From a virus (taxonomy: Duplodnaviria > Heunggongvirae > Uroviricota > Caudoviricetes): DNA of 9,422 nt. The translations under genes and the position numbers were made by a program. The notes below the pieces were generated by a model, which saw only the letters and a list, made by a program, of their open reading frames with translations, had not been told where the DNA came from and made no database searches. This document shows positions 1,984 through 9,306 of this stretch, one piece after another (position 1 is the first letter of the stretch; each line of letters begins with the position of its first letter). Location of the stretch: the IMG/VR virus record IMGVR_UViG_2554235187_000005; one strand, written 5' to 3'.

Positions 1984-2665
1984 CCAGTATTTACAGTTTG
2001 TTCGTGAGCAACTCATGATTGCCACTGCAGATCTCAGTGGGTCGACAAAATGCCAGCTGGAAGCCTGGCAGGAAAATGCCCTGTTCGATACAGGGCGTTA
2101 CAGACGCAAAAAAATTCGTTACCGCGATGAGGTAACCGGAAAAATGATCACGCGGGATAATCCCCCGATCCAGGGTAAACAATCACTGGCGAAAGGCTCA
2201 TCAATTGCGCTGGTCAGTCCTGTTGAGTTTGCAACATCATCGTGGCGGCGTGCTGTTCTGGAACTGGAAGAACATCAGAAGGCGTGGTTGTTGTGGTGTT
2301 ATGGCGGAAACATTTGCTGGGAGCATCAGATCGCGATAACGCAGTGGGGGTGGAGTGAATTTAAAACTCAGTCCGGCTCCAGAAAAATTGCAGTGAAAAC
2401 GCTGGAGCGTGTGAAGAAGTTGATCTGGCTGGCGGCACAGGATGTCAGAGGATGGGTTACCGGGTGTGAGGTCTACCAGAGACAGGAGCTTGCCAGACTG
2501 TGTGGAGTTAAGCCTGATAACTGGAGCCATAATTATGCGAACTACTGGCGTGAGATGTGCGATATTTTTAAGCGCCTCGATAGAGAATCCTTGATTTGCT
2601 CCGTGAAAATAAGAGCGCAACAAAAAGCGACCTTTTCACGACGAGATATTGCAAAAGTCAATTAA
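1976..2665 (+). CDS. Late-gene antitermination protein Q-like (QuuQ-type size class)
   Basis: 229-aa ORF overlapping the rusA stop (ATG 1976; alternative GTG 1970); position between rusA and a strong intrinsic terminator upstream of the lysis genes is the canonical Q position; family assignment by recall only. Confidence 0.55.
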   Translation: MNNQYLQFVREQLMIATADLSGSTKCQLEAWQENALFDTGRYRRKKIRYRDEVTGKMITRDNPPIQGKQSLAKGSSIALVSPVEFATSSWRRAVLELEEHQKAWLLWCYGGNICWEHQIAITQWGWSEFKTQSGSRKIAVKTLERVKKLIWLAAQDVRGWVTGCEVYQRQELARLCGVKPDNWSHNYANYWREMCDIFKRLDRESLICSVKIRAQQKATFSRRDIAKVN

Positions 2666-2700
2666 ATCGCGTATGTTTCGTATAAATCTGATATTTTGCC
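2657..2700 (+). promoter_or_regulatory. Putative late promoter pR' / qut region
   Basis: Candidate -35 GTCAAT (2657-2662) and -10 TATAAA (2681-2686) with ~18-bp spacer, directly after Q and ~40 bp before the tR'-like terminator; hexamers are weak, position is the main argument. Confidence 0.3.
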
Positions 2701-2726
2701 GATTTTGTACGTGATGGCAAAGTAAG

Positions 2727-2754
2727 AAAAAACCACCGCCAGGTGGTTTTTTTT
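2727..2754 (+). terminator. Intrinsic terminator (tR'-like)
   Basis: Stem CCACC(2733-2737)/GGTGG(2742-2746), loop GCCA, flanked by an A-tract and followed by 8 T's (2747-2754). Confidence 0.65.
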
Positions 2755-2877
2755 ATGTCCGAAAATCGCGTCAGTACAGTAAACGCGCTGGTGGTTGCGA
2801 ATACGGGTCTTTCAGCTTGCCGGCTTTTTCGACAAGAGTTATTGGTATGTCACGTTAACCGGAAAAGGGAAAAAGAC

Positions 2878-3075
2878 ATGCTAAAACAGCAGGATATGAC
2901 AGAAGCCGCCAGAGTGGTGTTTAATGAATTAAGCGTTACCGACCCGGCGACAGTCAGGGAGATTGCACAGAATACTTACCTTTCACGCGAACGCTGCCAG
3001 TTAATACTGACCCAGCTTGTTATGGCGGGTCTGGCAGACTATCAGTTTGGTTGTTACAGACACCTTCAGTCCTGA
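2878..3075 (+). CDS. Hypothetical small protein (65 aa), possible HTH-like
   Basis: ATG 2878 preceded by AAGGGA; the longer in-frame GTG 2743/ATG 2755 starts lie inside the terminator T-tract with no SD; flanked by terminators on both sides. Confidence 0.4.
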   Translation: MLKQQDMTEAARVVFNELSVTDPATVREIAQNTYLSRERCQLILTQLVMAGLADYQFGCYRHLQS

Positions 3076-3089
3076 AGGCTTTTTTATTT
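3063..3089 (+). terminator. Intrinsic terminator
   Basis: Hairpin CCTTCAG/CTGAAGG (3063-3078) overlapping the stop codon, followed by CTTTTTTATTT. Confidence 0.5.
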
Positions 3090-3388
3090 GTGGTAAATGG
3101 GCGGCTGGTGGGTGTGGTGGTTGTTGCTTTCCCGTTGCTGAAAAAGAAAACGCCAGACTGTTAGCCGGGTATCAGTTAGCGGGAGAAATTTTTAAATACT
3201 TCACAATTCAGGCGGTTGACTGTTGTCTGGTTTGCGGGGAGTTTGTTAAAAGAAACTGGCATGGTGAATCCCCCTGTGCGGAGGGGCAATCAGCGAGTAG
3301 GTATATGGGATAATCGCGGATTCAGGTGCTGGTACTGAATTCACCGGGAGGCACCCGGCACCATGCAATGGCACATAGCGCCACTCTC

Positions 3389-3424
3389 CAGCCCCTCTCC
3401 GGAGGGGCTGTTTATATTGATTTT
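3389..3424. terminator. Strong GC-rich hairpin terminator (+ strand; also closes the convergent minus-strand ORF)
   Basis: 9-bp stem CAGCCCCTC/GAGGGGCTG with loop TCCG (3389-3410) followed by TTTATATTGATTTT. Confidence 0.6.
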
Positions 3425-3444
3425 GTCAGATGTGAGTAAACTCC

Positions 3445-3780
3445 TTATGGACTTTGTTGTTTTAGCCCATAAGGACATATTTGCAGAGTGCAACGGTTAT
3501 TAAAGCATTCATTCAATACGTTATCTGTATTTGTAGGGCATTCCTGGCTGTTTTTGATTAAATTCCAGAATGTTTTATTGAATGGTACTACGTTGTAAAT
3601 GGTTACAGGTAGCACTTTGTTATTGAGCATGATACCTGTGTGAGTCAGTGTAAATATACTTTCAGGAGGTAAGAAAGCATCCGATTGATACCAGATTATT
3701 AATTTTATTTTACTCCATATGACTGAAAAAGATATTCCGCATGATGGCTGGATAACTGTATCAATCACAATCCACTTCAT
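3445..3780 (-). CDS. Hypothetical protein (111 aa), Cys-containing, encoded on an AT-rich island
   Basis: Minus-strand ORF with SD AAGGAAA ~6 nt upstream of ATG (rc of 3781-3795); opposite orientation to the late operon; terminator hairpin just downstream of its stop. Confidence 0.5.
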
Positions 3781-3820
3781 TTAGTTTCCTTGTTTATGCC
3801 TTGCTGGTGATGTTCTGAAA

Positions 3821-3846
3821 AGTATAAATGATATTTTTGATTGTAA
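3821..3846 (-). promoter_or_regulatory. Putative sigma70-like promoter for the minus-strand moron gene
   Basis: On the minus strand, TTACAA (rc of 3841-3846) and TATACT (rc of 3821-3826) in an AT-rich tract upstream of the 3445..3780 ORF; spacing is short (~14 nt), so weak. Confidence 0.2.
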
Positions 3847-4040
3847 ACCATAGAGCAGAATTATTTTTCTGATGTTGTTTATTGTTTATTTAAATGCAGG
3901 GTGGTTTATATCTCGTCTTGTAGTTTATCCATGCATATCTGCTTGATGATGAGGTTTTTATTTAAGGTATGGTTTTGTGTTTTTTCTGTATTACATGTCA
4001 GGTATTTTAAAGAATCATTTTTCAGATGGTGGAAAGAACC

Positions 4041-4229
4041 ATGGCATTTAAACACTATGATGTTGTCAGGGCGGCGTCGCCGTCAGATCTTGCGGAAAAG
4101 CTGACACATAAACTGAAAGAGGGCTGGCAGCCGTTTGGTAGTCCGGTGGCCATAACCCCTTATACCCTGATGCAGGCGATTGCAGCAGAAGGTGATGTGG
4201 TGGTCAGTGGTGCAACTGAGCCGGAGTGA
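4041..4229 (+). CDS. Small conserved prophage protein found upstream of holins (DUF1737-like)
   Basis: ATG 4041 preceded by GGTGGAAAGA; 62-aa product MAFKHYDVVRAASPSDLAEKL...; family assignment by recall. Confidence 0.5.
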   Translation: MAFKHYDVVRAASPSDLAEKLTHKLKEGWQPFGSPVAITPYTLMQAIAAEGDVVVSGATEPE

Positions 4230-4536
4230 TACTACGTCATCGTACTGGCCCGGCATTCCAGGCCATAAAAGACGGTCTGGCAGTGGGACTAAATGCACTG
4301 ACGCTGACGGATATTACCAAAAATGCAACGTATGGCGTTGAGATAGAAAGTCTGGTGCTGGAGATAAATGCACCGGCATCATCATAAAAAGTGAGCCAGT
4401 CAAATGGAAGGTATCGTTAAACTCACCGGTAGTGTCAGTGGGTCGTCTGAGACGCCTGCATGAGTTATCAGAGCCATCAGTACTTAACTGGTGGCTTTTT
4501 TATTGTTGTCAGCTTCCGGATAACGGGAGACGGGGT

Positions 4537-4752
4537 ATGTACCAGATGGAAAAAATCACAACAGGTGTGTCATACACCACGTCAGCGGTGGGAACGGGCT
4601 ACTGGTTCCTGCAGTTGCTGGACAGGGTTTCCCCGTCTCAGTGGGCGGCAATAGGCGTGCTGGGGAGTCTGCTGTTTGGGCTGCTGACATATCTGACTAA
4701 CCTGTATTTCAAAATCAAAGAGGACCGGCGTAAGGCGGCGCGGGGAGAGTAA
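4537..4752 (+). CDS. S: Phage-21-type pinholin (class II holin) with dual-start motif
   Basis: 71-aa product [71 protein letters not shown] closely matches recalled S21 pinholin; Met1 and Met4 starts. Confidence 0.85.
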
Positions 4753-4756
4753 AGTG

Positions 4757-5647
4757 ATGAATAAAAAATATGAACTGGTTGTTAAGGGGATAAATAATTA
4801 CGGGGATAAGGTTACTGTTACTGTGAAGTCGGAAGGTGACGGGCAAGCGTCGCTGTTGTTGCCAGATGTGGCGATTAGTCTTGACCGTACTGAAGGTGCC
4901 ACGCTGGAGTTTTACGAAGCTGAGGCGAAAAAGCAGGCGAAGCAGTTTTTCATGGATGTTGCTGCCGGGTTATGTGAATGGAACGAACCGTTGCCGGAAA
5001 AGCGCCCCGTAATTTTAGAGGCGCAGGATGTGTTGATAACCTACAAAGGAAAGCTACCGGGAAGAATTACTTGTTCTCTGAAGATGCCGCCGTCAACACT
5101 GCGGTCAGAAAAAGATGATGTTGAATCACGTATTGAAAAACTGGAGAGCTACGTCGTTGAGCTGAATAAGAAATGGTCGATATTGGTGCCTTCTGGCGAT
5201 GAAAAGCAGTTTGCTGCGTTTGACGATTATTGTCGGAAAGTGATGAGCAGAAATCTCGCAGAGTGTTTCAGTATTCATAATGATAATTTCAGTGACCCGG
5301 AATGGGAGTGTAACCGGCCATCCTTTGTTGTATCCGGTGATGCTGGGAAAATAACCATCTCAGAAAATGGGAAAGTAACACCTCCATCGCACCAGCACAG
5401 TGAGGAGCTCATTGAATTTGCCATTGATTACCTGAAGAACAATAAAAAGCAGGGGCTGATGAAGCGCGTTGGCCGTTGCATGGGATATCTTCAGGTAGCC
5501 GCTGAGATTGAAGCGCTGGCCAGTGGTGCTGATAAGGATGCAATTGTGCGGGAGGCTCTTCTTCGTGATTTTAATACTCCACCCTTTAAAAAAGTGCCGG
5601 CTTACTGGCTTCATCCGGGGCTGACTTATCTTAAAGTGCGTATTTAG
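4757..5647 (+). CDS. Unknown-function protein (~296 aa) inserted between holin and endolysin
   Basis: ATG 4757 (GTG 4754) starts 2-5 nt after the holin stop with GGAGAG SD; long clean ORF, no TM segments, predicted coiled-coil-like stretch (DDVESRIEKLESYVVELNKKW); no family recognised. Confidence 0.7.
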   Translation: MNKKYELVVKGINNYGDKVTVTVKSEGDGQASLLLPDVAISLDRTEGATLEFYEAEAKKQAKQFFMDVAAGLCEWNEPLPEKRPVILEAQDVLITYKGKLPGRITCSLKMPPSTLRSEKDDVESRIEKLESYVVELNKKWSILVPSGDEKQFAAFDDYCRKVMSRNLAECFSIHNDNFSDPEWECNRPSFVVSGDAGKITISENGKVTPPSHQHSEELIEFAIDYLKNNKKQGLMKRVGRCMGYLQVAAEIEALASGADKDAIVREALLRDFNTPPFKKVPAYWLHPGLTYLKVRI

Positions 5648-5683
5648 TGGGCCAGGGACAGCGGCTGAATATTTAATATATCC

Positions 5684-6217
5684 ATGAACACCAAAATCAA
5701 ATACGGCCTGTCGGCTGCCGTTCTGGCGCTGATTGCCGCTGGTGCGCCTGCGCCTGACATTCTCGACCAGTTTCTGGATGAAAAGGAAGGCAACCACACC
5801 ACGGCATACCGTGATGGTGCAGGTATCTGGACCATCTGCCGTGGTGCCATCATGGTGGATGGCAAACCTGTCGTTCCGGGCATGAAGTTGTCGAAGGAAA
5901 AATGCGACCAGGTTAACGCCATTGAGCGTGATAAAGCGCTGGCGTGGGTGGAGAAAAACATCAGAGTGCCGCTGACCGAACCCCAGAAAGCGGGGATCGC
6001 GTCATTCTGTCCGTACAACATTGGTCCCGGTAAGTGTTTCCCGTCGACGTTTTACAGACGAATTAATGCTGGTGATCGAAAAGGTGCCTGCGAAGCGATT
6101 CGCTGGTGGATTAAGGACGGTGGCAGAGACTGCCGTATTCGTTCAAACAACTGTTACGGTCAGGTATCCCGTCGTGACCAGGAGAGCGCGCTGGCGTGCT
6201 GGGGTATCGACAGATAA
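5684..6217 (+). CDS. R: SAR endolysin (T4-lysozyme-like, R21-type)
   Basis: N-terminal Gly/Ala-rich weakly hydrophobic SAR segment (GLSAAVLALIAAGAPAP) followed by an E-x8-D-x5-T catalytic triad (EGNHTTAYRDGAGIWT). Confidence 0.85.
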   Translation: MNTKIKYGLSAAVLALIAAGAPAPDILDQFLDEKEGNHTTAYRDGAGIWTICRGAIMVDGKPVVPGMKLSKEKCDQVNAIERDKALAWVEKNIRVPLTEPQKAGIASFCPYNIGPGKCFPSTFYRRINAGDRKGACEAIRWWIKDGGRDCRIRSNNCYGQVSRRDQESALACWGIDR

Positions 6218-6305
6218 GCAGAATATTTTGCTGAAAAATGAGGAATGGCCACGCGGGCGGATAACACGAAATCCTGCGAACTGGCGAAACGTAAGTGAAT
6301 AAAAG

Positions 6306-6350
6306 TAAAAACCCCGTTTGTTGGCACCAAGCGAGGTTTTGTGTTTCTGA
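6306..6350 (+). terminator. Terminator-like structured element after the endolysin gene
   Basis: Imperfect stem AAAACCCCG/CGAGGTTTT enclosing a mini-hairpin TTGG-CA-CCAA, followed by a T-rich GTGTTTCTG; weak. Confidence 0.25.
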
Positions 6351-6373
6351 CCTTGAGTAAGGCAAGGGAGAAC

Positions 6374-6556
6374 ATGGCGAAGTGTAAACGAATTCTGTTG
6401 AGGTTGACTATGAAAAATGGCCTTGAACTGAAAGCGCCTGTAACTGATGACATCAGCAGAGCACTGGCTTTTGCCATTAAGTGGGTGGCGGTCGGTGTTG
6501 CTGTGTCCCCGATGCTGTATGGGCTGGCAAAACTGGTCATTGCGTTGAAATCGTGA
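6374..6556 (+). CDS. Small membrane protein (60 aa, C-terminal TM helix)
   Basis: ATG 6374 preceded by AAGGGAG; C-terminal hydrophobic segment [27 protein letters not shown]. Confidence 0.5.
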
Positions 6557-6570
6557 AGGGAGGATTAAGC

Positions 6571-6702
6571 ATGTCAGACAAACTCATAACGCTGGCGAAG
6601 ATCCTCTGTGTAATTGTCGGCATTTCATTTTCACTAATGCTGGTTGCTCTTTTTCTTTCCATGGCCTGGATGATGTTGTCTTCGTCGGGGTTGCTGGGGT
6701 GA
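6571..6702 (+). CDS. Small membrane protein (43 aa, single TM helix)
   Basis: ATG 6571 preceded by strong SD GAAGGGAGGA; hydrophobic core [26 protein letters not shown]; stop overlaps the Rz start. Confidence 0.45.
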
Positions 6703-7172
6703 ACATAAACCGAATGCTTTCCGCGTTTATCGTTATTCTGCTGGTGGCCTGTGGTGCGCTGTGGATGGCAACAGACCATTACCGTGATAACGCGATTACC
6801 TACAAAGCGCAGCGCGATAACAAAGCCAGTGAACTGAAGCTGGCGAACGCAACCATTACTGATATGCAGGTGCGCCAGCGCGATGTTGCTGCGCTCGATG
6901 CAAAATACTCGAGGGAATTAGCCGATGCGAGAGCTGAAAATGAAACTCTTCGCGCTGACGTTGCCGCTGGTCGTAAGCGCCTGCGGATCAACGCCACCTG
7001 TCCAGGCTCCGTGCGTGAAGCCCCCACCACCTCCGGCGTGGATAATGCAACCGGCCCCCAACTGGCAGACACCGTTACACGGGATTATTTCACCCTCAGA
7101 GAGCGGCTGATGACGATGCACAAGCAACTGGAAGGGGCACAGGACTATATCCGCACTCAGTGCCTGAAATAA
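6699..7172 (+). CDS. Rz: Rz i-spanin
   Basis: Near-identity to recalled lambda Rz over most of its length ([14 protein letters not shown]..., DYFTLRERL...); N-terminal TM; GTG start at 6699, alternative ATG at 6714. Confidence 0.9.
6940..7110 (+). CDS. Rz1: Rz1 o-spanin lipoprotein embedded in Rz (+1 frame)
   Basis: [15 protein letters not shown] lipobox followed by proline-rich mature region (PPPPPAW); fully nested inside Rz as in lambda; alternative upstream ATG 6925. Confidence 0.8.
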
Positions 7173-7482
7173 GTTTTGTTGATGCGCCGTATCGTCGCTA
7201 TATTCCCTCATTAACAGAGACCGCAGCCCGACAGGGAGACTCCTCTGCGCGAGTGTGCGGGGATAATTAAAAACGATGCACACCGGGTTTTTACCGCGTT
7301 AATGATTCGCGGGTTTATCCCGGTGCGATGGTGGAAGAAACAGGAAGCTGTATTACAGAAAGTGCTACTACTGTATCCCGATGCGATGTATGTAATGTGA
7401 GTCAGATAATGGCACAGGATGTGGTGATGTGGCAGTCTGGAACACAGGATATATTGTCAGAATAAGACCCGTAGGAATAAAA

Positions 7483-7809
7483 ATGAAAAGACGCCTTTTA
7501 CTACTTTTTCTGTTATCTGTCCTGGCAGTGGGATGCTCGCAGCAAAAAGCTGATGAGCCCCGGCAATTAGTGACGGTGTATCCACGATATCCGGAATATG
7601 CTGCAGCAAATTATATCAAGGGGCTGGTTGAGGTTAAGTTCGATATTGGTGCTGATGGGACTGTGACACGGATCGTTTTTCTCCGCTCAGAGCCTCATAA
7701 TTTGTTTCGTGATGAAGTGGTGAAGGCCATGGCGAAATGGCGATTTGAAAAGAATCGCCCCTGTCAGGGAGTGAAGAGACAATTTATCTTTACGCCGTCA
7801 CGTCCTTGA
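7483..7809 (+). CDS. Lipoprotein with TonB C-terminal-like domain (phage moron)
   Basis: SD AGGA 6 nt before ATG; signal peptide plus lipobox LAVGC; mature part matches the TonB-CTD pattern (YPxYPxxA...G-V-V-KFDI--DGTV--I--L-S-P---F--EV--AM--WRF). Confidence 0.6.
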   Translation: MKRRLLLLFLLSVLAVGCSQQKADEPRQLVTVYPRYPEYAAANYIKGLVEVKFDIGADGTVTRIVFLRSEPHNLFRDEVVKAMAKWRFEKNRPCQGVKRQFIFTPSRP

Positions 7810-7901
7810 TGCTTCCAGGTAGAGAGGGGCTGGACGCAGGAGAAAAATGAAAGAGCCAGCGGTTATATTTTTGTCATGGCTGACGAGGAATGATGGAAGA
7901 A

Positions 7902-7950
7902 GGCGTTGTATGCCACACAACGCCTCACTGTTCATTTCTTCTTTTTCTCT
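7902..7950. terminator. Bidirectional terminator between convergent genes
   Basis: Hairpin GGCGTTGT/ACAACGCC (7902-7924) followed on + by a T-rich TCACTGTTCATTTCTTCTTTTTCTC. Confidence 0.45.
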
Positions 7951-8111
7951 GGTGGAACCCGATGAATAAGAGTTGCACTGGTTTCCGATGAGATGGCGAT
8001 ATACTCGGGCAAAGTATGCTGGCAGTTTTCCAACTGGTCAAAAATACCTGCTCTCGTCTGTTGCAATGCCTGCAGCATGCGGCGGCAATGCGCCTTGCTT
8101 TTACTAACCAT
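7932..8111 (-). CDS. Hypothetical small protein (59 aa; in-frame extension possible to 8285)
   Basis: Minus-strand ATG (rc of 8109-8111) preceded by strong SD AGGAAGGA; the longer 117-aa version overlaps the adjacent ORF; C-terminal KKKK is encoded by the terminator T-tract, which is suspicious. Confidence 0.3.
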   Translation of the reverse strand: MVSKSKAHCRRMLQALQQTRAGIFDQLENCQHTLPEYIAISSETSATLIHRVPPEKKKK

Positions 8112-8172
8112 CTTTCCTTCCTCTATCAGTCGCTGCGTGAACTCATCATGTAATACCAGGTAAATGCGGATG

Positions 8173-8424
8173 TTATCGGTTTTGGCTACGCAGCATAGTA
8201 CAAAACGGACAGGTGCATCCCGGGACGGGGGAGGCGTCACATGTCCCTGTGATGGTTGTTCCGGGTAATGCACTGTGTGGGGCATAAAAATGTCCGATAA
8301 TTTTACTTTCTACCGCAGTTAGTTGATTCGTTGGTCCTGGTAGCACATTGGGCGAGGATTTAAATGCCAGGCAACTGAAGGATGATGTTGCAAGGGAGAT
8401 AGCGAGAATATTTCTGATTTTCAT
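8173..8424 (-). CDS. Small secreted Cys-rich protein (83 aa, predicted signal peptide)
   Basis: Minus-strand ATG (rc of 8422-8424) with SD AGAGG; N-terminal MKIRNILAISLATSSFSCLA signal-peptide-like; 5 Cys in the mature part. Confidence 0.4.
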   Translation of the reverse strand: MKIRNILAISLATSSFSCLAFKSSPNVLPGPTNQLTAVESKIIGHFYAPHSALPGTTITGTCDASPVPGCTCPFCTMLRSQNR

Positions 8425-8572
8425 TTGATGATGCCTCTGTGTGAAATGACGGTAAACGACGCACTTGTGCCGGCACATAATAGCAAGCACCATAATAGAT
8501 CAGATTCGATTCTTGCTGTAAGTGATAATTATTCTCGTTTTCGGGTCCTTTCCGTCGATCCAACAGGTTACG

Positions 8573-8584
8573 GGGCGGCGACCT
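8573..8584. other. cosN cohesive-end site (GGGCGGCGACCT)
   Basis: Exact match to the recalled 12-nt lambda cohesive end, preceded by ...CAGGTTACG and followed by CGCGGGTTTTCGCTATTTATGAAAATTTTCCGG as at the lambda left end; ~190 bp upstream of Nu1. Confidence 0.85.
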
Positions 8585-8620
8585 CGCGGGTTTTCGCTAT
8601 TTATGAAAATTTTCCGGGGA

Positions 8621-8736
8621 AAATCATGTCGGTACTTCTCGAACATAACTATTTGTTTTTTCTAATATCGAATCCGTAAAAGGTCCGACATGAAAACGCC
8701 TAAAAAAGTCATTTTCGGGCACTTTCATGTCGGCCC
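8621..8736. repeat. cosB-like terminase-binding repeats (3 copies of TCATGTCGG, the middle one inverted)
   Basis: TCATGTCGG at 8624-8632 and 8725-8733 (direct), CCGACATGA at 8685-8693 (inverted); the R3/R2/R1 arrangement mirrors lambda cosB, but the repeat sequence differs from lambda. Confidence 0.5.
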
Positions 8737-8760
8737 CTGTATTTATTGTGAGACTGTTTC

Positions 8761-9306
8761 ATGAAGGTTAATAAAAAGAAACTTGCCGAAATTTTCAACG
8801 TGGATCCGCGAACGATTGAACGCTGGCAGTCTCAGGGACTCCCTTGCGTCTCCGGAGGTGGTAAGGGCGTTGAATCTGTATTTGATACCGCCATGGCAAT
8901 TCAGTGGTATGCGCAGAGGGAAGCTGATATCGAAAATGAAAAACTCCGTAAAGAGGTTGAGGATTACAGGGCTGCCAGTGAGGCAGATCTCCAGCCTGGG
9001 ACTATTGAGTACGAACGCCATCGACTTACGCGTGCGCAGGCCGACGCACAGGAGCTGAAAAATGCCAGAGACTCCGCTGAAGTGGTGGAAACCGCATTCT
9101 GTACTTTCGTGCTGTCACGGATCGCAGGTGAAATTGCCAGTATTCTTGACGGGATCCCTCTCTCGGTACAGCGGCGTTTTCCGGAACTGGAAAACCGACA
9201 TGTTGATTTCCTGAAACGGGATATCATCAAAGCCATGAACAAAGCAGCCGCGCTGGATGAACTGATACCGGGGTTGCTGAGTGAATATATCGAACAGTCA
9301 GATTGA
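8761..9306 (+). CDS. nu1: Terminase small subunit Nu1
   Basis: 181-aa product near-identical to recalled lambda gpNu1 from ~residue 60 onward; N-terminal wHTH region diverged ([30 protein letters not shown]...). Confidence 0.9.

Follow-up and report, generated by a model that had tools for sequence, protein, structure and literature searches.

Probable exchangeable gene slots in the lysis region of a lambdoid Escherichia coli prophage

Introduction

The lysis region of phage 21 (OL657228) is arranged in the order S21-71/68 pinholin, R21 endolysin of the signal-anchor-release (SAR) type, Rz/Rz1 spanins, bor, a gene annotated as "TonB C-terminal domain protein," and cos. Here we compare this and other described systems with the lysis region of a lambdoid Escherichia coli prophage, represented in IMG/VR by a stretch of 9,422 nucleotides (record IMGVR_UViG_2554235187_000005; hereafter, the window). 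The window is the Q-to-terminase stretch of the prophage, and its lysis region (4537-7809) contains additional genes in three places: a DUF1327 gene between S and R (slot 1, S|R; module A), a pair of small-peptide genes, sm60 and sm43, between R and Rz (slot 2, R|Rz; module B), and a TonB-like gene encoding a TonB_C lipoprotein after Rz (slot 3, Rz|cos; module C). The window shares with phage 21 the holin family with its dual start, the spanin family, the same TonB_C lipoprotein without a difference, and, at 98.7% identity, the 1.39 kb that end at the cohesive end. It differs from phage 21, in which S, R, and Rz adjoin or overlap one another and neither S|R nor R|Rz contains a gene, bor stands between Rz and the TonB-like gene, and the R allele is only about 33% identical to that of the window.

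The cryptic Qin prophage of E. coli K-12 (hokD-rem-ydfU-ydfT(Q)…essQ-ydfR-rrrQ-rzpQ/rzoQ…nohA) resembles the window in the upstream gene order (hokD, rem, DUF968, Q), in the presence of a DUF1327 gene, ydfR, at S|R, and in having cargo both in the Q-S interval and in the stretch from Rz to the terminase gene. However, the Qin protein YdfR consists of 103 aa without a C-terminal extension, R|Rz lacks small peptides, the spanin is of the DUF2514 type, and the cargo after rzpQ is cspI/gnsB/ydfO rather than a TonB_C gene. The Shiga toxin (Stx)-converting and related lambdoid phages (933W, BP-4795, Stx2-86, PhiR12) are 88-94% identical to the window at the nucleotide level over S, R, and Rz and have a YdfR-family gene at S|R. 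PhiR12_1 shares the small-peptide pair, and the Stx1a phages and JLK-2012 carry a 72% allele of the TonB-like gene. Unlike the window, many Stx-type phages have the antirepressor gene ant at R|Rz.

Like the TonB-like gene, lambda bor and ColV-type iss are small lipoprotein genes in the Rz-to-cos interval, dispensable for lysis, and this interval is a classic lambdoid accessory site. The TonB-like gene is adjoined by iss in UTI89 and by bor in phage 21. The bor and iss genes lie on the opposite strand and are expressed in the lysogen from their own promoter, whereas the TonB-like gene is co-oriented with the late operon, with no promoter detected, and the folds of the proteins are unrelated.

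Two other described proteins invite comparison. Llp of phage T5 is reported to be an outer-membrane lipoprotein of the inner leaflet, and both Llp and the Cor lipoprotein of φ80 and N15 block the receptor FhuA from its periplasmic side. Like Llp and Cor, the TonB_C protein is a small phage lipoprotein; it is predicted to lie on the inner leaflet of the outer membrane and could bind the periplasmic face of TonB-dependent transporters. There is no sequence relationship between them, and whereas Llp is FhuA-specific, a TonB_C domain should bind many transporters through their Ton boxes. As a decoy for Ton boxes, the protein would be a broad-spectrum counterpart of Llp. The second protein is gp25 ("releasin," DUF2730) of phage Mu, a small membrane-tethered protein of 99 aa with N-out/C-in topology and a 73-aa cytoplasmic domain, which is encoded near a SAR endolysin and controls its release (PMC9239132). 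It provides a loose analogy for the products of sm60 and sm43, which have 60 and 43 aa, a C-terminal or central transmembrane segment, no DUF2730 match, and the opposite predicted topology. Because the cassette of the window contains a pinholin, a releasin is not required.

[quoted passage not shown] Very probably, the region is a lambdoid late operon in which S|R, R|Rz, and Rz|cos are exchangeable slots, each holding one allele from a large pool, and the three modules were brought together by mosaic recombination and do not constitute a functional unit.

Results

Occupancy and Diversity of the Three Junctions

Homologous cassettes were collected from IMG/VR by anchoring on the holin and retaining the best 80 contigs by identity, with S proteins at least 97% identical (≥97%), and the junctions were scored by tblastn. 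Among these loci, 65 contain S, R, and Rz, and 55 are complete as far as 1.3 kb beyond Rz. An occupied S-R junction is seen in 44 of these 55 complete cassettes, the R-Rz junction is longer than 100 bp in 60 of the 65 loci, and a TonB-like gene follows Rz in 12 of the 55. The initial annotation of the window, made from the sequence alone, had reported a concentration of three non-canonical insertions. All three elements are present, were placed accurately to the gene boundaries, and behave as coding sequences. Such a concentration of extra genes is not unusual given the observed occupancy of the first two junctions: most members of the lineage lack the compact arrangement seen in phage 21. The term "non-canonical" does not suit all three either, as the identical TonB_C protein is encoded by phage 21 itself.

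The intervals between the core genes are highly variable in cassettes with near-identical holins. The S-to-R interval occurs in 23 distinct lengths (4-1319 bp), and the R-to-Rz interval in 18 (11-1911 bp). The breakpoints of pairwise blastn alignments fall at gene borders. The whole DUF1327 gene corresponds to an insertion or deletion at 4761-5710, and its C-terminal two-thirds to a separate one at 5085-5677, the latter in agreement with the protein alignment, where the C-terminal domain exists as a stand-alone protein. Replacement of the peptide pair is exact at 6373-6692, coinciding with the two open reading frames (ORFs), and the 155-nt spacer upstream of them is retained. Further breakpoints lie at 7183 and at 7346/8507; the last two, found against cassettes L043, L084, and L001, delimit the TonB module (7346-8507) missing from relatives without the TonB-like gene. 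In different phages, the interval after Rz contains bor/iss, TonB_C, Dps/ferritin, csp/gns, or Acb2-like genes, or insertion sequence (IS) elements. The variety of interval lengths, the gene-border breakpoints, and the changing contents of the post-Rz interval all support the suggestion that this locus is an accessory-gene hotspot in the lineage.

Co-occurrence of the Modules

All three places are filled in 10 of the 55 complete cassettes (18%), compared with about 12% under independence, and six of these ten are the same prophage. The 55 cassettes collapse to 39 architectures, and seven of the eight possible presence/absence combinations of modules A, B, and C occur. Fisher tests on the unique architectures reveal no association between A and C (p=0.62) or between B and C (p=0.45).

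Individual loci illustrate these combinations. The TonB-like gene is present without the other two modules in phage 21, in UTI89 (compact type, with iss adjoining), and in cassette L010, where it is the only module. Cassette L084 contains a long DUF1327 gene and neither the pair nor the TonB-like gene, and PhiR12_1 combines the DUF1327 gene with the peptide pair in the absence of TonB. In the TonB-anchored IMG/VR sample, again the best 80 loci by identity, the identical TonB_C protein is encoded behind at least five different lysis cassettes: S21, DUF1327, and the pair (17 loci); hol101, a 101-aa holin, with GH24, rzpD, and iss (14 loci); essD with a short DUF1327 gene, R, rzpD, and iss (11 loci); essD with rrrD, rzpD, and iss (10 loci); and others. 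The whole arrangement of the window is found in none of the 387 matching INPHARED phage records (0/387).

In 5426 complete E. coli genomes, scored at ≥80% cover and with module A represented by the C-terminal part of the DUF1327 gene, A was found in 603 genomes, B in 1036, and C in 1221. The combination A+B is present in 438 genomes, B+C in 406, and the whole cassette in 405, including 394 at ≥99% identity over 3.5 kb.

The check suggested in the initial annotation, a comparative analysis of co-occurrence, has thus essentially revealed independent occurrence of the modules. The proposal that the components function together is unsupported, since each module is found without the others and there is no A-C or B-C association. 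The modules are common, and none of them is an individually characterized moron.

Core Lysis Cassette

The coordinates of the features discussed below are collected in Table 1. The core cassette is complete and conventional in composition, with S as a pinholin with a dual start, R as a SAR endolysin, and Rz/Rz1 as spanins. The S protein starts with MYQMEK, where Met1 corresponds to the antiholin and Met4 to the holin, yielding products of 71 and 68 residues, as in the S21-71/S21-68 annotation of phage 21. The N-terminus of R, MNTKIKYGLSAAVLALIAAGAP, contains a Gly/Ala-rich hydrophobic segment at residues 9-27 with a Kyte-Doolittle (KD) hydropathy value, KD19, of 1.74. Judging by these basic residues before a weakly hydrophobic domain, R is an endolysin of the SAR type, and its release from the membrane is predicted. 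The R allele is of the 933W type and not the phage 21 allele, with 33% identity to the RrrD protein of the phage 21/DLP12 type. The contiguity of S, R, and Rz seen in phage 21 is absent here, as extra genes fill 934 bp between S and R and 499 bp between R and Rz. In sum, the region is a phage 21/933W-type lysis cassette within a standard lambdoid mosaic. The chromosome of strain 7/2, like many other complete E. coli genomes, matches positions 4400-7900 at 100% identity.

Table 1. Features of the window, with positions numbered from its first letter.
Feature	Coordinates	Strand	Evidence and remarks
STnc100 small RNA (sRNA) family match	3230-3419	+	Rfam RF02076, 132 bits vs gathering score 47
iraM, anti-adaptor stabilizing RpoS	3445-3780	-	NCBIfam NF007393, 162 bits; between Q and S
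S, P21-type class II (pin)holin, dual start	4537-4752	+	PF04971, E=7e-33
Slot 1 module, 296-aa soluble DUF1327 protein	4757-5647	+	PF07041, E=1e-40, residues 2-101, profile positions 1-88 of 93
R, phage lysozyme with SAR-type N-terminus	5684-6217	+	PF00959, E=2e-24
Spacer after R, 155 nt	6218-6373	+	Homology through 6372 in cassettes L001, L010, and L084, whose slot 2 contents differ
sm60, slot 2 gene 1, predicted 60-aa tail-anchored membrane peptide	6374-6556	+	phrog_1115/4493; KD hydropathy
sm43, slot 2 gene 2, predicted 43-aa single-pass membrane peptide	6571-6702	+	phrog_4906; KD maximum 2.89
Rz i-spanin	6714-7172	+	PF03245, E=2e-47; RefSeq start at 6714
Rz1 o-spanin lipoprotein, embedded in Rz, +1 frame	6925-7110	+	PF06085, E=4e-20; lipobox VVSAC
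Phage 21-type right-end segment, up to cos	7183-8572	+	98.7% identity to phage 21 OL657228 41542-42931
Slot 3 module, 108-aa TonB_C lipoprotein (WP_000830178)	7483-7809	+	PF03544, E=1e-12; TIGR01352 above cut-off
59-aa ORF accompanying the TonB-like gene	7932-8111	-	RefSeq call; phrog_4843
83-aa ORF, unannotated	8173-8424	-	Signal peptide, lipobox-like SSFSC, Cys-rich C-terminus

TonB-like Lipoproteins at the Rz|cos Junction

The TonB-like gene begins 310 nt past Rz, within a segment corresponding to the terminal 1390 bases of the linear genome of phage 21. By this match, cos lies at about 8572, and what had been taken for an "insertion after Rz" is simply the right chromosome end of the phage 21 type.

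The encoded protein consists of a signal peptide, a lipobox LAVGC (Cys18, with Ser at +2), a tether of about 12 residues (~12), and a complete TonB C-terminal domain. The lipobox fits the PROSITE-type pattern, and Asp, the Lol avoidance signal, is absent from position +2. G17-C18 are invariant across the TonB_C alleles and present in distant relatives too. By these features the protein should be an outer-membrane lipoprotein of the inner leaflet. It is 41% identical to residues 150-230 of E. coli TonB, with Y163/P164, F180, G186, F202, W213, and F230 conserved. An α-β-β-α-β topology is predicted, and the top Foldseek matches of a low-confidence model (predicted local distance difference test, pLDDT, 57) are all TonB/FusB C-terminal domains. 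Scores against the NCBIfam TonB equivalogs are all far under the cut-offs (69 vs 315 bits), and the protein has neither the N-terminal inner-membrane anchor with the SHLS motif nor the Pro-rich linker spanning the periplasm that couple TonB to ExbB/ExbD. For lack of this anchor and linker it cannot transduce energy and is not a TonB. Comparison of the two TonB-like alleles gives a ratio of nonsynonymous to synonymous polymorphism (pN/pS) of 0.25 (pS 0.63, pN 0.16), consistent with purifying selection.

In PHROGs, the TonB_C family (phrog_1267) is labeled "Rz-like spanin" in the category of lysis. We considered the protein as an o-spanin or a unimolecular spanin and rejected both assignments, given the complete Rz/Rz1 pair in the same cassette and the lack of a C-terminal transmembrane segment. 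The label is most simply explained as a positional mis-annotation.

The family extends beyond the close relatives of the window. A full HMMER scan yielded about twenty short proteins (98-133 aa) with 33-46% identity to the TonB_C lipoprotein, most of them with lipoboxes. Relatives of two of these proteins are encoded at 47 further viral-contig loci (39-56% identity). At nearly all 47 loci, genes for a holin, endolysin, or spanin precede the TonB_C gene, which is located 0.6-3 kb downstream of them, and these lysis genes belong to other families (λ-S-type holin, GH19, DUF2514); where the flank is long enough, the distant TonB_C genes stand 0.8-3 kb upstream of the small terminase gene. In one such contig, L185 (3102-3386), and also in L191 and L203, a protein with an Acb2/Tad1 hairpin domain is encoded between the endolysin and the distant TonB_C gene, with IS3 and IS605/TnpB elements nearby. 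The Acb2/Tad1 hairpin-domain family comprises anti-CBASS and anti-Thoeris sponges. The post-lysis interval gathers counter-defense and mobile genes, as expected of an accessory site.

Two scans of species-representative genomes for the TonB-like gene found only a 418-bp contig (L086, NZ_SJEX01000172.1) of a Modestobacter excelsi assembly. It is 100% identical to the E. coli TonB-like gene and is almost certainly E. coli or phage contamination. The literature searched for the phage TonB-like lipoprotein contains genome-annotation mentions only, with no function described. PADLOC gave no significant match for any of the six cargo proteins of the window, the best being PbeC (E=0.018) over a coiled-coil stretch.

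Small Membrane Peptides at the R|Rz Junction

The sm60 peptide has a basic N-terminus and a predicted transmembrane segment at about residues 30-58. Both sm60 and sm43 are preceded by a strong ribosome-binding site (Shine-Dalgarno sequence), and the stop codon of sm43 overlaps a GTG in the Rz frame. With a pN/pS of 0.11-0.25, sm60 behaves as a coding sequence under purifying selection. The constraint on sm43 is weaker (0.25-1.0), and its frame is open in all 12 alleles (12/12). Homologs of sm60 with 77-82% identity are found in Salmonella prophages, where they stand alone between the lysozyme gene and Rz, behind an unrelated holin. Neither peptide has a match in Pfam, even at E≤1, or in NCBIfam or PADLOC.

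The presence of small peptides is a general property of this junction. All 60 R-to-Rz intervals longer than 100 bp (60/60; 47/47 unique sequences) encode at least one single-transmembrane peptide of 28-60 aa, compared with 7% of shuffled sequences and 16% of random same-length windows from the same loci. The peptides fall into at least five types and share mix-and-match motifs, namely …AFAI[KR]…, …WKF[IL]L…, and a C-terminal IRWW or A[IL]K[GS]. They look like the default occupant of the R|Rz junction rather than an insertion. The peptides may act in the inner membrane beside the SAR endolysin, possibly tuning its release or the timing of lysis; the literature searched describes no function for them.

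The spacer between R and sm60 shows no significant RNA structure (fold z-score -0.75). It contains a TTG-initiated ORF of 24 codons, MLKNEEWPRGRITRNPANWRNVSE, at 6230-6304 (+), and similar translations occur in relatives with other downstream peptides; this ORF may be coding or may simply be part of a conserved leader.

DUF1327 Protein at the S|R Junction

The slot 1 ORF starts 4 nt past the stop codon of S, with a GTG at 4754. Its 296-aa product consists of an N-terminal DUF1327/YdfR domain (residues 1 to about 75), a linker or coiled coil, and a conserved C-terminal domain of about 110 aa, and matches phrog_1085 over its full length (1-296 of 296). The N-terminal part is 47% identical to K-12 YdfR over residues 1-74. 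Modular homologs exist, among them stand-alone proteins of 185-213 aa that represent the C-terminal domain; searches of PADLOC, NCBIfam, and Pfam with this domain gave no match. The protein belongs with a cluster of 962 sequences at 98% identity, and clusters of the family reach hundreds of members. No transmembrane segment or signal features are predicted, and no PDB sequence relative was found. The AlphaFold2 model is too poor to justify a fold search (pLDDT 50.6; predicted template modeling score, pTM, 0.34).

The RefSeq annotation (PGAP) covers the ORF only from 4757 to 5092, under the label "YdfR family protein, incomplete, pseudo," and has no entry for 5093-5647. We rejected the pseudogene assignment, because the frame is intact, matches phrog_1085 end to end, and belongs to a large family. 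The flag is an artifact of comparison with the 103-aa YdfR model.

Residues 1-72 of K-12 YdfR bind the N-terminal catalytic half of RNase E and co-purify RNA, as reported from two-hybrid and pull-down experiments (PMC13232886). In a comparison of sequences alone, this RNase E-interacting region coincides with the stretch conserved in the window protein. By analogy with YdfR, the DUF1327 domain may bind the catalytic half of RNase E and modulate RNA decay late in infection. Our best guess for the role of the DUF1327 protein is thus a late-expressed modulator of RNA decay.

Transcription of the Region

A simple consensus scan detected no σ70-like site at threshold on the + strand in 2600-8800 and only weak hairpins in 4537-7809. 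No terminator stands directly after any of the three modules in the scan of the window, and the folds of the long spacers at 6218-6373 and 7173-7482 show nothing above background. Alignment of the regions upstream of the two TonB alleles reveals conserved blocks with only weak -10-like motifs. The genes of slots 1 and 2 are co-oriented with their neighbors and tightly packed or overlapping. Given the lack of a recognizable promoter or terminator of their own and this packing or translational coupling, they are most likely expressed as part of the Q-antiterminated late transcript, from which S, R, and Rz are also made. The TonB-like gene, which has the same orientation, is likely also read by the late transcript, and its expression in the lysogen is possible.

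Neighboring Genes and the Right Chromosome End

RefSeq and our own scans place hokD-rem first in the prophage (outside the window); a DUF968 gene, rusA, Q, the STnc100 match, iraM on the opposite strand, and a DUF1737 gene come next, before the lysis region and, at 8761, the gene for the small terminase. The terminase, portal, and protease genes downstream are intact. A terminator-like hairpin at 3389-3410 coincides with the end of the STnc100 match. The match is probably a late-promoter leader (6S-like) RNA and marks where the late transcript that supplies the cassette begins; pR' would then lie near 3225. The iraM patch is AT-rich (GC content 0.33-0.35) and contributes a further accessory gene of the late region, present in many, not all, related cassettes.

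Between the TonB-like gene and cos, two ORFs are found on the minus strand, for which PADLOC, NCBIfam, and Pfam searches gave nothing. The coding strand of 7932-8153 is disputed: RefSeq calls the 59-aa minus-strand ORF, and the phage 21 and UTI89 records call a + strand ORF (in the window, 8016-8153; in UTI89, 60 aa long). As the DNA hardly varies, both frames are conserved. Every one of the 72 IMG/VR loci that carry the 100% TonB allele has an intact copy of the 83-aa ORF (MKIRNILAISLATSSFSC…). This ORF has no Pfam, PHROG, or NCBIfam match and is annotated neither in RefSeq nor in the phage 21 record. In Salmonella enterica prophages (L216-L219), a 165-aa ferritin/Dps-family gene lies after Rz on the opposite strand, at the bor/iss or TonB_C position.

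Discussion

We consider it highly probable that the lysis region of the window is a lambdoid late operon with three exchangeable slots, whose present occupants were assembled by mosaic recombination. Several observations weigh against this interpretation. The IMG/VR samples consist of the best 80 loci by identity, mostly from E. coli isolates, and are not an unbiased census. In raw counts of complete genomes, about 405 triples are found compared with about 26 expected. The association between A and B, which occupy adjacent slots, is nominally significant after de-duplication, although weak (p=0.044). The TonB_C genes keep a conserved position after lysis genes, small peptides are regularly found at R|Rz, and each of them could contribute to lysis. 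The promoter assignments are negatives of a simple consensus matcher. Finally, the TonB residues R158, Q160, and R166, which contact the Ton box, are replaced in the lipoprotein by T, Y, and Y, and strand β3 differs; with these replacements, binding of Ton boxes is not assured. As for the excess of triples, we attribute it to one prophage lineage counted many times (394 genomes at ≥99%); joint inheritance of the modules in about 400 genomes would be due solely to the shared single prophage.

The same counts bear on the proposal that the three modules are one envelope-directed system, for exclusion or control of lysis, working as a unit. Its attraction is that one operon encodes all three products, each predicted, or at least plausible, as a protein adjacent to the envelope or to lysis, and that the modules are found together in about 405 complete genomes, with a weak A-B association (p=0.044). 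However, the triples represent a single prophage at ≥99% identity, each module commonly occurs without the others, sm60 is found alone in Salmonella, and phage 21 and UTI89 have the identical TonB-like gene and lack the other two modules. Moreover, the DUF1327 protein has no membrane or signal features, and its K-12 homolog is cytoplasmic and binds RNase E (PMC13232886). We regard a functional unit as very improbable. Even less credible is the idea that the extra ORFs are pseudogene fragments and chance frames, the debris of a decaying prophage. The truncated pseudogene annotated by RefSeq at 4757-5092, the poor structure prediction for the 296-aa protein (pLDDT 50.6), and the weak constraint on sm43 could be read in this way, but the 296-aa frame is uninterrupted, covers phrog_1085 end to end, and belongs to a 962-sequence cluster at 98% identity; its C-terminal domain is also a stand-alone gene; sm60 and the TonB-like gene are under purifying selection; the same modules occur in phages isolated and propagated on laboratory strains (PhiR12_1, phage 21); and the downstream terminase, portal, and protease genes are intact.

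A more serious alternative is that the occupants of slots 2 and 3 are unrecognized regular lysis components, the peptides regulating release of the 933W-type SAR endolysin or pinholin timing and the TonB_C protein aiding outer-membrane disruption or spanin function. The regularity of the peptides, present in 60 of 60 occupied R-Rz intervals against 7% and 16% in the controls, agrees with this, as does the retained position of sm60 in Salmonella, and the Mu releasin demonstrates that a small membrane-tethered protein is able to control SAR endolysin release (PMC9239132). Yet phage 21, whose R-Rz junction is empty, lyses with no more than S, R, and Rz/Rz1, the junction is likewise empty in five cassettes that share the R allele of the window, and the peptides have no DUF2730 match and a topology opposite to that of the releasin. 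For the TonB_C lipoproteins, their location after unrelated lysis genes in most of the 47 further phage contigs and the PHROGs label "Rz-like spanin" point in the same direction. Here, a complete Rz/Rz1 pair leaves no need for an o-spanin substitute, the label is most simply a positional mis-annotation, and the post-Rz site also accepts bor/iss, Dps, csp, and IS elements, as would be the case for a neutral insertion site. On balance, lysis functions for both slots seem rather unlikely.

For the TonB_C lipoprotein, the most concrete hypothesis is a decoy or exclusion function. It follows from the inhibition of TonB-dependent transport by the periplasmic TonB fragments 33-239, 103-239, and 122-239, reported in a preprint (bioRxiv 10.1101/2020.01.05.895219). 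Anchored through Cys18 under the outer membrane, where Ton boxes emerge, the lipoprotein might occupy the Ton boxes of TonB-dependent transporters; by analogy with the fragments, such occupancy could block TonB-dependent phages and colicins. FhuA, BtuB, FepA, CirA, and transporters like them would be targeted through their Ton boxes. The effect would be to exclude TonB-dependent phages, colicins, and microcins, or to shield the progeny from receptor debris. We tentatively propose, as a possibility short of even odds, that the TonB_C lipoproteins are an unstudied phage-borne family of Ton-box decoys with a fixed place after the lysis genes of numerous temperate enterobacterial phages, among them phage 21, and, separately, that the R|Rz peptides are a regular fourth component of 933W-type SAR-endolysin cassettes.

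The slot organization itself matters little, as it illustrates the well-known lambdoid module-swapping mosaic in a sequence already present in hundreds of genomes; RefSeq, PHROGs, and the annotated genome of phage 21 already contain all parts of the region, and the idea of lambdoid hotspots is well known. Its value is as a pointer to three common phage gene families, found in 11-22% of complete E. coli genomes. The link between DUF1327 and RNase E suggests late-stage control of RNA decay. Should the R|Rz peptides modulate release of the SAR endolysin, a further component would have to be added to the three-step lysis cassette that textbooks describe for 933W-type phages. The residual interest lies mostly in the TonB_C lipoprotein family, which, if its members are Ton-box decoys, would represent a new mechanism of superinfection and bacteriocin exclusion, with a bearing on iron uptake in pathogenic lineages, for example UTI89-like B2 strains and the hosts of Stx phages.

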